Made by a program: the position numbers and the translations under genes. From Chiloscyllium plagiosum (Eukaryota), in the NCBI RefSeq assembly GCF_004010195.1, contig NC_057730.1, forward strand, positions 19,628,687-19,692,686: 64,000 nt of DNA, in the 5' to 3' direction. The notes beneath the pieces are model-generated. The model ran no database searches. It was not told the origin of the DNA and worked only from the letters and a program-made list of their open reading frames with translations. Positions 12,423 to 33,913 of this stretch are shown piece by piece (the first letter of the stretch is position 1; the number at the start of each line of letters is the position of its first letter).

Positions 12423-13246
12423 NNNNNNNNNNNNNNNNNNNNNNNNNNNNNNNNNNNNNNNNNNNNNNNNNNNNNNNNNNNNNNNNNNNNNNNNNNNNNN
12501 NNNNNNNNNNNNNNNNNNNNNNNNNNNNNNNNNNNNNNNNNNNNNNNNNNNNNNNNNNNNNNNNNNNNNNNNNNNNNNNNNNNNNNNNNNNNNNNNNNNN
12601 NNNNNNNNNNNNNNNNNNNNNNNNNNNNNNNNNNNNNNNNNNNNNNNNNNNNNNNNNNNNNNNNNNNNNNNNNNNNNNNNNNNNNNNNNNNNNNNNNNNN
12701 NNNNNNNNNNNNNNNNNNNNNNNNNNNNNNNNNNNNNNNNNNNNNNNNNNNNNNNNNNNNNNNNNNNNNNNNNNNNNNNNNNNNNNNNNNNNNNNNNNNN
12801 NNNNNNNNNNNNNNNNNNNNNNNNNNNNNNNNNNNNNNNNNNNNNNNNNNNNNNNNNNNNNNNNNNNNNNNNNNNNNNNNNNNNNNNNNNNNNNNNNNNN
12901 NNNNNNNNNNNNNNNNNNNNNNNNNNNNNNNNNNNNNNNNNNNNNNNNNNNNNNNNNNNNNNNNNNNNNNNNNNNNNNNNNNNNNNNNNNNNNNNNNNNN
13001 NNNNNNNNNNNNNNNNNNNNNNNNNNNNNNNNNNNNNNNNNNNNNNNNNNNNNNNNNNNNNNNNNNNNNNNNNNNNNNNNNNNNNNNNNNNNNNNNNNNN
13101 NNNNNNNNNNNNNNNNNNNNNNNNNNNNNNNNNNNNNNNNNNNNNNNNNNNNNNNNNNNNNNNNNNNNNNNNNNNNNNNNNNNNNNNNNNNNNNNNNNNN
13201 NNNNNNNNNNNNNNNNNNNNNNNNNNNNNNNNNNNNNNNNNNNNNN
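12423..13246. other. assembly gap (N run)
   Basis: Continuous Ns. Confidence 1.
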
Positions 13247-29912: not shown

Positions 29913-31946
29913 CTGATGTAAATTAAGTTTTAGAAGCATTATTAAACAAATTTAAAACACTTTTTTAAAACTCAGATGACATCCATACTTTCTTTTCCTA
30001 CCACACAACGACAGTTATTAAGCCAGTTCAAATATTCTTGTTATAAATCCCATCTGTTTAAGTCCATAAGTGATCCTCTGTGGTATTATACATATTTTCC
30101 TCTTCACATTCTAGAGGCACATAAATGTTATTTTTGAAAAACATGGTGAACTTGCAGAGGGGCCCCATTTCCCCAGAAGAAAACCTGATTTTTTTTTATT
30201 CATGCGCTGCACATTCAGTAAAGAACATTTATACCAGCTGAACCTAATTCAAATCTCCAGGATGTTTTGGCATATCTAATAGATCTTCACTAAATCCTTG
30301 TAAAAATCTTTTTCTGAGCTAGAGGGGAGAAAACAATTTTTCCTTTACTAACATCTGTAGCCATTTTACAAAGAGACAAGTAAATAGTGGTTCTGATCAG
30401 AATCTGGGTGTTTCAAAGAAACAAACTTGGTGAACAAAGAACTGCAGCACTAAACAAAACTTACCACATTAAGTCAACACATGTAGAGTTAGTAGATAGC
30501 AACCTAGAATCTTAACTCTACCTTCTATTTCAACCAGTGTTCTTTTCTTGGGGACAGAAGGTATTTATGACTGGATTGCAACTCCTTAGTAGGAATTGAG
30601 GGTTACTCAGCCATGGGCAGGCTACCTCAAACCACAGCAGTGTACAAATTTGACTTCAGAATTTGAACCACAAAATGAAGCTATTCAACCTATCACAGCT
30701 CTGAAGTAGGACCAACTGGATAGTTTGAAAGCTGGCAACAACCTTTCTCTGAAGTCCAACAAAATGTTTGTTGCTTTACCCAAGTTCCCTTTTTATTGAA
30801 TCTGCTTCCAAAACCCTTTTAGCTAGTACATTCCAGATGATAATATACAGCATTAAAAAAATTGTTCTGCTCCCATTTTTTTTGCCAATATATATGTGCT
30901 AATTCTGACCCTACTTCTAGTTGAAAGAATTTCTCCTTGTTCACCAGCAAAGCCATCCATAACTTTGAACACCTCTGTTAAAACCTCAATGTCCTTCAAT
31001 AAGAGAAACAATTCTGGACAAAATACTTTAAATCTCTGCTTGAAAGGTTTAGTCTTGTTCTCTAAAGTATAAGGATAACATATGCTTTTAGAACAAGGAG
31101 ATTCTTAGTCCTCATTATTCAGAGCATATTCTGAGTTGTTAGCTACATTCCAGTGTGCAATGAAATGCAGTAATTGGCACTGAAATTTCAGAAAGATATT
31201 TACACTTTGTGCATAACAAAACCATAAACTGTTTACAGATCTGCAAACTTACAGTTAACCATGAAGAACCCAGTTTCTGAGCAGGCAGCAGATTTGGTCA
31301 TTTTAAAAATTATTTTCAAACATCTTTCTTGAAGGGTATGACAGGCCAGAATATTTATCATTGCAATCAAGATCTATGAAGGAGCATCCTTCAAGACAAG
31401 TTAACAGGGCTCCAGTCAAATAGAAAACAGCCAGTGAAAATGCTAACATTTAGTTTAGAACATGATAAGTTAACATTGCCTGTCAACAGCATAAAATTTG
31501 CAAACACTGCCCAAAGTATAAATATGAAGTGCCTGTTGCGAGGTAACAACAGCCTCTTGTATAGAGGAAAAGGAAATGCTCATCTTCTCAGTACAACATT
31601 CTGTACCTCTGATTATGGGACCAGAGAGAAATCAGATACAGATTAGTTTGAATTATGAAACGTCCACGTCATCTCATATTTCAGTACTGGTGCAGGCAAG
31701 ATAGTTGAGAAGAAAACAGTTTCATCAATGAATATGCTAACAATCCTTGAGCAATATTGTAGGTGTACAGCAGAAAGCGGATCAGATCTCGGTGAAATTG
31801 CAACTACACAGTGAAGTGTTATCGCAGGAGGCACTTCACAACAATAACAACTTCTTAAAGAAAAGGAAAATACAAAAAGGAAGGAAAAACTGAAGTTAAG
31901 TAATGCAAACGAGTCAAGAGGATCTGGAAGCTCCTCTGGTACGTAC

Positions 31947-31949
31947 CTC
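31947..31949 (-). CDS. CYTH3: 3-nt microexon GAG (adds the third Gly to the PH domain)
   Basis: Minus strand tctctgcttattctgcattag|GAG|gtacgt, in the intron between the WLLKLG and GRVKTW exons. Confidence 0.85.
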
Positions 31950-32963
31950 CTAATGCAGAATAAGCAGAGACAGCCAGTCATAGAACAGAAAGGTGACAGG
32001 TCATAGGCCATAAGGAAAACAAGAAGGCACATTTAAGCCAATTTTATAAAAAAAACTAGAGCAAACAAACACACAAATCAATAGAAAAATCACAAATAAT
32101 GCAAGAAAAAGAGACATGTACAAATCATAACTCTGAAAGTGCCACTTGCTTTGTATGTGAAAAGTTGAAGCAGTCAACAAATGTAACAACCATGCAACTC
32201 ACTTCAGTATCGTGAAATAAAATAAAAGCACTAACTCAAATGGTTTATGTTTATAAATAATGTTTCTAACACCACTATCCAATATATCTGTTGAATAATG
32301 GAACTGTAAATCAGCATCATTGTACATTGAAAGGATGTTAAAATACAACATACAAGAACCTTCTTGTATAAACAGAAAAACAACCACAGTGGATTTCCAG
32401 TCAAAACTCAAGGTTATAGTAATTATTTCTCATGCATTATTTATCTTGAATAATCTGCTAGGATTAAGCCAGTCTTCTGAGGCATGTGACAGTTAATGCC
32501 CCAAGTGTTTTTCTTTAGGACACTGGGTGCGGTCAACATATGCACCAGCAATCAGATAGACGCTCCAAACATCATTTTTTAAAAACAAAGTCAGACCGTA
32601 TGGTGTAACAGAAGACATATCAGGGATGAAATAAACAATGCTGGTATGAGTCAGTGCTAGACATGGTAAGGCAATTTAATAGCATCCCCTGCGCCTTTGG
32701 CATTTGAGGATTGAATTTTGGTCCATGATATTAGAAAGAAACTTCCTCATCCCTCACGCAGCACTTCTTGAAACTTTATCCAAGGGATCAGATAGGGTCT
32801 TGTTTTACTTTTATATCCATCAGTGTAGCACCTCCTGAGTACTACACTGGACTGTGTTTAGATTGTGGACTTTGGCTCAAGTCCAACCAAGCTGAAATAA
32901 GGCTTAGGTAACAAACCTCAAATGTTCTGTAATATTGTATAGAATATGATTAGACAAACTAAC

Positions 32964-33075
32964 CTAATTTTAATAGCCAGCCTTCTCGATCAGGGTTAAA
33001 AAATGTGTGGGTCAAATCATTCCCATCATCTTCTGGGATTTTGAAAGGTTCATTCTTAATACTATCATACAAGTT
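32964..33075 (-). CDS. CYTH3: cytohesin-3 Sec7-PH linker exon (112 nt)
   Basis: [37 protein letters not shown](G). Confidence 0.96.
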
Positions 33076-33913
33076 CTGCAGAAGGATGGGAAAAAGAAAC
33101 ATTAACATGAATCTAATGCACATGCTTCAATTAAAGAGTTACAAAATATTTACAACATAGAAATAGGCCATTTGCTTCAACTGGTTCATACCAATGTTCC
33201 ATTCACCCTCTTCCAACCCTCCCATATCATCCCATTAGCACAACTTCCTATACCCTTCTCCTTTCTGCATTTATCCAACTTTCCCTTAAATCCAACCAAG
33301 TTATTCACATCAAATATTCCTTGTGATAGCAAGTTCCACATTCTAACCAATCTCTCATGATAAGGAAGTTTCTCCTGAATTTCTTATCGGATTTATTACT
33401 GGCCCCTAGATTTCAATTTCCTCTTGAGTGGAAGCATCTGTAGACTACTCTGTCAAACTCCTTCATAATTTTAAAGACCTTTGCAGGTTACTCCCTGGTA
33501 TTCTGTTTTCCAGAAAAAAGCCCTAGTATAAATTCTCAGTTCTAGAATGTTCGCTTCATTTACTGGTAAAATACTTTAATCATTCCAATCTGAGCTCACT
33601 TTTTCAGAACACATTATTTTCCTCTTCAAAAGTAAAGTTGCAAGAGCTAAAATGAGGAGTTATTTGTTGCCCTGCTTTTCCTCAGAGTGGCACAACTGGA
33701 TCTTCTTACCTTGAAGGCAGGCATGGCCATTTACACATCAAAAAATGGCACCTCTGACAGCAGTATATTGTTGGACGGTCAGCCTACATCAAGTGCTGAA
33801 GGCTAGCAGTAGGTCTTTAACCCACCTCTTTCTGACTCATTAGGTTGAAGTGCTAACCTCTCATTATTGGTGGGGATGGTGCAGGCTTGAAAGAGTTTTG
33901 TCTAAACACTCAC

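Follow-up and report, generated by a model that had tools for sequence, protein, structure and literature searches.

Diglycine and triglycine variants of the mammalian cytohesin PH domain are the subject of primary papers that reportedly appeared in 2000 (Ogasawara; Klarlund) and 2004 (Cronin). The locus described here raises the question of whether a shark has the same switch. A GAG triplet bounded by splice signals lies within an intron of a cytohesin gene in a 64-kb window (the whole stretch of Chiloscyllium plagiosum DNA that was analyzed), and an earlier note, made from the letters of this window, read the triplet as a 3-nt microexon of CYTH3 with a neural regulatory signature.

The CYTH3 gene and its candidate microexon

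The host gene is indeed CYTH3 (cytohesin-3, or GRP1), encoded on the minus strand. We recovered 12 ordinary coding exons between 53238 and 26297 (Table 1); when joined by script, they form a single open frame (388 codons, counting the stop) that holds the coiled coil, the Sec7 and PH domains, and a polybasic tail with CYTH3-type sequence. The first coding exon was not found within the 64-kb window. Several comparisons identify the paralogue: the last exon matches the solved cytohesin-3 at 22 of 23 residues, with the ARNO peptide scoring lower; the CYTH3-type tail is distinct from the tails of paralogues 1, 2, and 4 among database proteins; the best named database matches of the penultimate exon are cytohesin-3; and, over the protein as a whole, identity to cytohesin-3 of amniotes is ∼94%. 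A tree was built with 16 named CYTH3 proteins, a set that contains no shark; most of its inner branches are unresolved. The window protein groups in it with those of Mobula and Leucoraja (support, 100/98), and it differs from the Mobula protein at 5 of 360 alignment columns. Judging from these protein comparisons, the gene belongs to an elasmobranch.

Elsewhere in the window, an assembly gap of 824 N occupies 12423-13246, and there are reading frames near 63400-60300 and 15800-15000 that we take to be decayed and reverse-transcriptase-like. The 83-nt exon that opens the recovered series equals in length an 83-nt mouse Cyth3 exon tabulated in PMC8797185.

Table 1. Positions of the features discussed (window coordinates, or database protein identifiers in the last row)
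Feature	Position	Strand	Basis or remark
CYTH3 coding exon	53238-53156	minus	AG/GT boundaries, open frame
CYTH3 coding exon	49809-49745	minus	AG/GT boundaries, open frame
CYTH3 coding exon	45685-45619	minus	AG/GT boundaries, open frame
CYTH3 coding exon	38128-38010	minus	AG/GT boundaries, open frame
CYTH3 coding exon	35567-35487	minus	AG/GT boundaries, open frame
CYTH3 coding exon	34435-34323	minus	AG/GT boundaries, open frame
CYTH3 coding exon	34062-33914	minus	AG/GT boundaries, open frame
CYTH3 exon upstream of the microexon	33075-32964	minus	End of Sec7 region and start of PH domain; last base is the first base of the first Gly codon
TGCATG, RBFOX-type hexamer	32196-32191	minus	∼240 nt upstream of the microexon, in the upstream intron
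Candidate branch-point-like motifs	A at 32047, 32011, 32001, 31994, 31978, 31961	minus	Motif match
5' arm of predicted 11-bp helix	32032-32022, pairing with 31951-31941	minus	Folding prediction
Candidate GAG microexon of CYTH3	31949-31947	minus	Splice signals, frame
CYTH3 exon downstream of the microexon	29912-29836	minus	AG/GT boundaries, open frame
CYTH3 coding exon	28779-28708	minus	AG/GT boundaries, open frame
CYTH3 coding exon	28046-27892	minus	AG/GT boundaries, open frame
Last CYTH3 coding exon, with stop	26369-26297	minus	AG/GT boundaries, open frame
Loop-insert proteins	P0196-P0210, P0214, P0215, P0225, P0239		Database proteins

The triplet sits in a 3,051-nt intron that interrupts LGGRVK within its first glycine codon, where the minus strand reads tag/GAG/gtacgt, with the acceptor AG at 31951-31950 and the donor GTACGT at 31946-31941, in the places that had been claimed for them. 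Skipping of GAG yields LKLGGRVKTW and inclusion yields LKLGGGRVKTW, adding one glycine to the beta1/beta2 loop of the PH domain, and the frame stays single with either 12 or 13 exons. The two proposed strings across the 32964/29912 junction, TTAGGAGGAAGA for skipping and TTAGGAGGAGGAAGA for inclusion, proved correct when the exons were joined by script. Compared with the U1-complementary consensus, the donor agrees at 8 of 11 positions, which is a simple match count and not a MaxEnt score. The AG-free, pyrimidine-rich zone of about 104 nt that had been described before the acceptor is also there, at 32055-31952 of the minus strand (104 nt, 69% pyrimidine); 8 of ∼3,960 AG-to-AG gaps on this strand are as long, and at the 12 other acceptors this zone measures 15 to 68 nt. 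A scan of both strands of the window for AG-NNN-GT(A/G) returned 236 sites (130 minus, 106 plus), 8 of them carrying GAG. Three requirements were combined as a filter, namely a pyrimidine ahead of the AG, 40 nt or more free of AG, and a donor scoring 7 of 11 or higher; the GAG at 31949 alone passed, and its AG-free zone is the longest of all 236. These observations establish the splice signals, the frame, and the identity of the gene.

We also considered other sources of variation in the loop. The contexts of the upstream donor and the downstream acceptor offer no alternative route to a third glycine. The intron contains four further possible in-frame mini-exons, which were set aside; their donors are weaker (7 of 11) and their AG-free zones span 4 to 45 nt. 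The downstream acceptor (29915-29910, minus strand) is a tandem CAG-GAG, and use of its second AG would remove a glycine and give a one-glycine loop. Nine two-copy direct repeat families and four inverted pairs were found in 29920-33100, none of them at the microexon; among the features of the downstream intron is a 17-nt inverted repeat (31822-31838 and 31525-31541, 88% complementary), whose arms lie ∼110 and ∼410 nt from the microexon.

Relation to the known cytohesin switch

Cytohesins 1, 2, and 3 are described as having two isoforms each that differ by GAG in the beta1/beta2 loop (PMC9104363), and the shark GAG equals this insertion in position, phase, and letters. The site also falls in the one intron where the known microexon predicted it. 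We therefore consider GAG at 31949-31947 very likely to be the elasmobranch orthologue of the mammalian alternative cytohesin microexon, probably included in a minority of transcripts. The likeness to the mammalian exon extends to the family, the paralogue (CYTH3), the letters, the loop, and the one-glycine outcome; what differs is the elasmobranch host and a predicted RNA helix over the exon, of which the available text of PMC6314551 and PMC9104363 makes no mention. In three human lines of non-neural type, inclusion of the CYTH3 microexon was measured at 5%, 5%, and 21% (Ratcliffe et al., PMC6314551), and the facts on the diglycine and triglycine forms are restated in PMC6948192 and PMC6724607. 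Outside mammals, the closest likeness is a 3-nt exon in a fish cytohesin gene, zebrafish cyth1b (DreEX0025552; PMC9303857), which differs in belonging to paralogue 1 rather than 3 and in being only partly srrm3 dependent. The mouse exon table, in the available part of PMC8797185, lists 3-nt exons of Cyth1 and Cyth2 and no 3-nt exon of Cyth3, and a literature search that was thin on subscription papers returned no report of the exon in a cartilaginous fish.

Among 76 database proteins with a CYTH3-type tail, 52 read GG, 23 are unreadable at the loop, and 1, from the bird Merops nubicus, reads GGG, and GGG is present in 21 of 36 named CYTH1, 8 of 11 named CYTH2, and 2 of 11 named CYTH4 proteins; these counts are of representatives of 90% clusters, and the second search was biased to GGG. 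Public annotation thus includes triglycine isoforms for many cytohesins, one bird CYTH3 among them. No more can be read from the counts than that annotation is able to catch exons of this kind and that few CYTH3 records have GGG, a scarcity that fits a minor isoform in CYTH3. Both elasmobranch CYTH3 proteins retrieved (Mobula and Leucoraja) read GG. The two cytohesin-4 records with GGG are from a catfish and a tenrec (P0125 and P0167); the review PMC9104363, in its available text, gives the triglycine form for cytohesins 1 to 3 only.

The consequence for the protein can be proposed by analogy. The diglycine PH domain is reported to be selective for PI(3,4,5)P3 and triglycine cytohesin-1 to bind PI(4,5)P2 (PMC6314551); the review PMC9104363 describes the triglycine form as binding both lipids similarly, and the addition of one glycine to fly Steppke is reported to weaken PI(3,4,5)P3 binding (PMC4640550). 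The residues flanking the loop in the window CYTH3 are identical to those in bird and ray CYTH3 proteins. Skipping would give a diglycine protein, and because a diglycine PH domain is selective for PI(3,4,5)P3, this Arf exchange factor would be recruited to the membrane only after PI3K signaling. Inclusion would extend the loop by one glycine, lower the selectivity, and make recruitment dependent on PI(4,5)P2, thereby moving the exchange factor from growth-factor-triggered toward more constitutive membrane recruitment.

As to the age of the switch, human CYTH1, CYTH2, and CYTH3 are reported to share the GAG exon (PMC6314551, PMC9104363), and the paralogues are reported to date from an expansion at the base of vertebrates (PMC6727740). 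Most simply, the microexon would have arisen once, ahead of the paralogue duplications, which places it before the split of cartilaginous and bony fish. The earlier note was right that the switch predates this split, but the point is not new, being implied already by the three human paralogues, and our finding supports rather than extends an origin before the paralogues diverged. It adds a cartilaginous-fish example to a switch that zebrafish also has and that has been on record for mammals since 2000; the coordinates of the microexon are useful for annotation, and the significance is otherwise little.

Control of inclusion

From its anatomy, the exon would be too short for ordinary exon definition, and recognition would be carried by the strong donor together with the distant branch point and pyrimidine tract of the AG-free zone. 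Through the UGC motifs near the acceptor, SRRM3/4 could increase neuronal inclusion, acting as a modifier and not as an on/off switch.

A stronger version of neural control, in which the exon is a switch-like neural microexon that is skipped in most tissues and included in neurons through SRRM3/4 with the help of RBFOX, strikes us as unlikely. Part of the proposed signature stood. Two TGC motifs are confirmed on the minus strand just before the acceptor, at 31966-31964 (-17 from the exon) and 31957-31955 (-8), and form a candidate SRRM3/4 enhancer; one TGC within 20 nt occurred in 1,351 of 5,000 resamples and two in 161. SRRM3/4 (eMIC)-dependent microexons are described as having in common their donor strength, AG-free zone, and UGC near the acceptor (10.1101/2024.09.17.613571, PMC8797185), and in the former study a strong donor, a long AG-free zone, and UGC near the acceptor characterize the targets, which reportedly behave alike from shark to mammals. 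Each element of this anatomy (a length of 3 to 27 nt, a strong 5' splice site, a long AG-free zone, and UGC between branch point and AG) is found at the shark site, although the minigene experiments of the same study (10.1101/2024.09.17.613571) are reported to show UGC to be neither necessary nor discriminating.

Evidence from other cytohesins is divided, and the neural reading is only partly supported. Inclusion of the zebrafish cyth1b exon is reported to rise from a PSI of 10.9 in the head at 24 hpf to 73.8 in the eye at 5 dpf and to reach 48.7 in srrm3 mutant eyes (PMC9303857), indicating partial dependence on srrm3, and the low inclusion of CYTH3 in non-neural human lines leaves room for a neural gain. 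However, the 3-nt exons of mouse Cyth1 and Cyth2 are placed in the control group of alternative exons, outside the eMIC-dependent and neural groups, in the published table (PMC8797185), in which the Cyth3 exon is unlisted; mammalian cytohesin microexons are reported to be included in non-neural tissues as well; and no cyth entry appears in the searched supplement files of three neural-microexon papers (12 of 12 files for PMC12626424, 12 of 13 for PMC12626420, and 1 of 1 for PMC12868881).

The part of the signature that did not hold is the RBFOX motif. The TGCATG hexamer is present where it had been reported (Table 1), and a second one in the upstream intron starts at 32436 of the minus strand. 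The minus strand has 20 copies of the hexamer, which also arose in 981 of 5,000 resampled 500-nt stretches; this is chance frequency. The 2,034-nt downstream intron has no copy, only one GCATG 1.7 kb away. Upstream binding of RBFOX tends to repress, and brain GRP1 is mostly diglycine. Enrichment of RBFOX motifs at alternatively spliced microexons is reported for the downstream side (PMC4317164), and the arrangement used to define RBFOX-enhanced microexons, TGCATG in the proximal downstream intron, is not seen at this site. Because the hexamer is frequent, lies upstream, and has no counterpart in the downstream intron, the side on which enrichment is reported, it is uninformative and adds nothing to the neural reading.

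We regard as quite unlikely another proposal, that RNA structure mainly sets inclusion and that the exon stays hidden unless a protein bound to the looped-out pyrimidine/UGC tract opens a helix. The predicted 11-bp helix spans the acceptor AG, the exon, and the donor, and by covering both splice sites it could hold inclusion near zero, which would account for the low level reported for CYTH3. Across five window sizes, nine of the eleven pairs (those of the acceptor AG, the exon, and donor positions +1 to +4) have pairing probabilities of 0.7 to 1.0; the duplex energy of -14.1 kcal/mol was equaled in 6 of 1,000 dinucleotide shuffles of the upstream 141 nt, and the site is joint best among 129 minus-strand AG-NNN-GTR sites. 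Against this, folding of the entire region is unremarkable beside shuffles (z, -0.26), the microexon site finds equally good partners in 4 of 106 overlapping pyrimidine-rich windows, pairing with a U-rich tract comes easily to a purine-rich site, and the test was made after the fold had been seen.

The frequency of such sites was gauged in 5,000 Markov resamples of the 3,051-nt host intron, 127 of which contained YAG-GAG-GTR; the donor scored 8 or higher in 7, and 50 nt or more were free of AG in 6. That the GAG site is a chance match or decayed relic which the spliceosome ignores, leaving a diglycine protein only, is very improbable: the bare motif is not that rare and the retrieved elasmobranch CYTH3 proteins read GG, but the full set of features is rare in the resamples, the site falls in the one intron where human CYTH3 has its known GAG exon, and an unused site would be unlikely to have retained its signals since the split from bony vertebrates.

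The same loop in invertebrate cytohesins

Beyond vertebrates, the loop that receives the microexon is also a site of variation. None of the 79 metagenome loci kept (of 356 confirmed stretches) has the vertebrate loop sequence. At three loci with invertebrate-type cytohesins (L048, at 8972; L049; and L050), an intron lies at the exact position and phase of the vertebrate microexon-bearing intron, with the downstream exon not recognized in the available DNA. A transcript-like locus (L017, 951-1000) carries a 15-nt in-frame insert in the loop that is compatible with the vertebrate intron position. In L037 the intron lies 7 nt further on, in phase 2 of an arginine codon of the same PH loop, and 956-961 of this locus form a 6-nt candidate microexon (Thr-Arg) with TGC before the AG and a strong GTGAGT donor.

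A protein search with the loop of L017, a query biased to inserts, recovered 117 new proteins; the loop is longer in 22 of them and reads plain GG in the other 95. The 13 named carriers of inserts are Mya, Mizuhopecten, Ruditapes, Crassostrea, Pomacea, Arion, Tubulanus, Lineus, Tachypleus, Romanomermis, two Drosophila species, and Stomoxys, so that inserts of 4 to 6 residues are found in mollusc, nemertean, chelicerate, nematode, and fly cytohesins (identifiers in Table 1). These protostome (steppke-like) cytohesins resemble those of vertebrates in having an in-frame insert in the beta1/beta2 loop, which in molluscs, nemerteans, and the chelicerate comes right after the first glycine, as in vertebrates. 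They differ in that the inserts, seen in database proteins, have 4 to 6 residues, often S/A-K-L-S, in contrast to the single vertebrate glycine, and those of flies follow the second glycine, unlike the vertebrate microexon. Neither a literature search nor the available part of the fly exon table (PMC8797185) yielded a description of an invertebrate cytohesin microexon.

These observations suggest a scenario that we offer tentatively and consider doubtful, in which this very intron would have carried an optional, loop-tuning microexon ever since the bilaterian ancestor: a ∼15-nt lysine-bearing exon in molluscs, nemerteans, and chelicerates that was reduced to one glycine codon in vertebrates, with a second exon site lying slightly farther along in other protostomes. 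The elasmobranch CYTH3 exon would in addition be locked in the 11-bp helix, which a neural factor would have to open. A loop-tuning exon that was bilaterian-wide, or had arisen several times within one intron, would offer a clean example for the study of microexon origins and would inform how the lipid specificity of PH domains is adjusted. Such a shared exon would matter because only four eMIC-dependent exons are reported at equivalent positions in fly and mouse, as far as the available text of the source goes. In one further locus (L029), the loop reads GGG.
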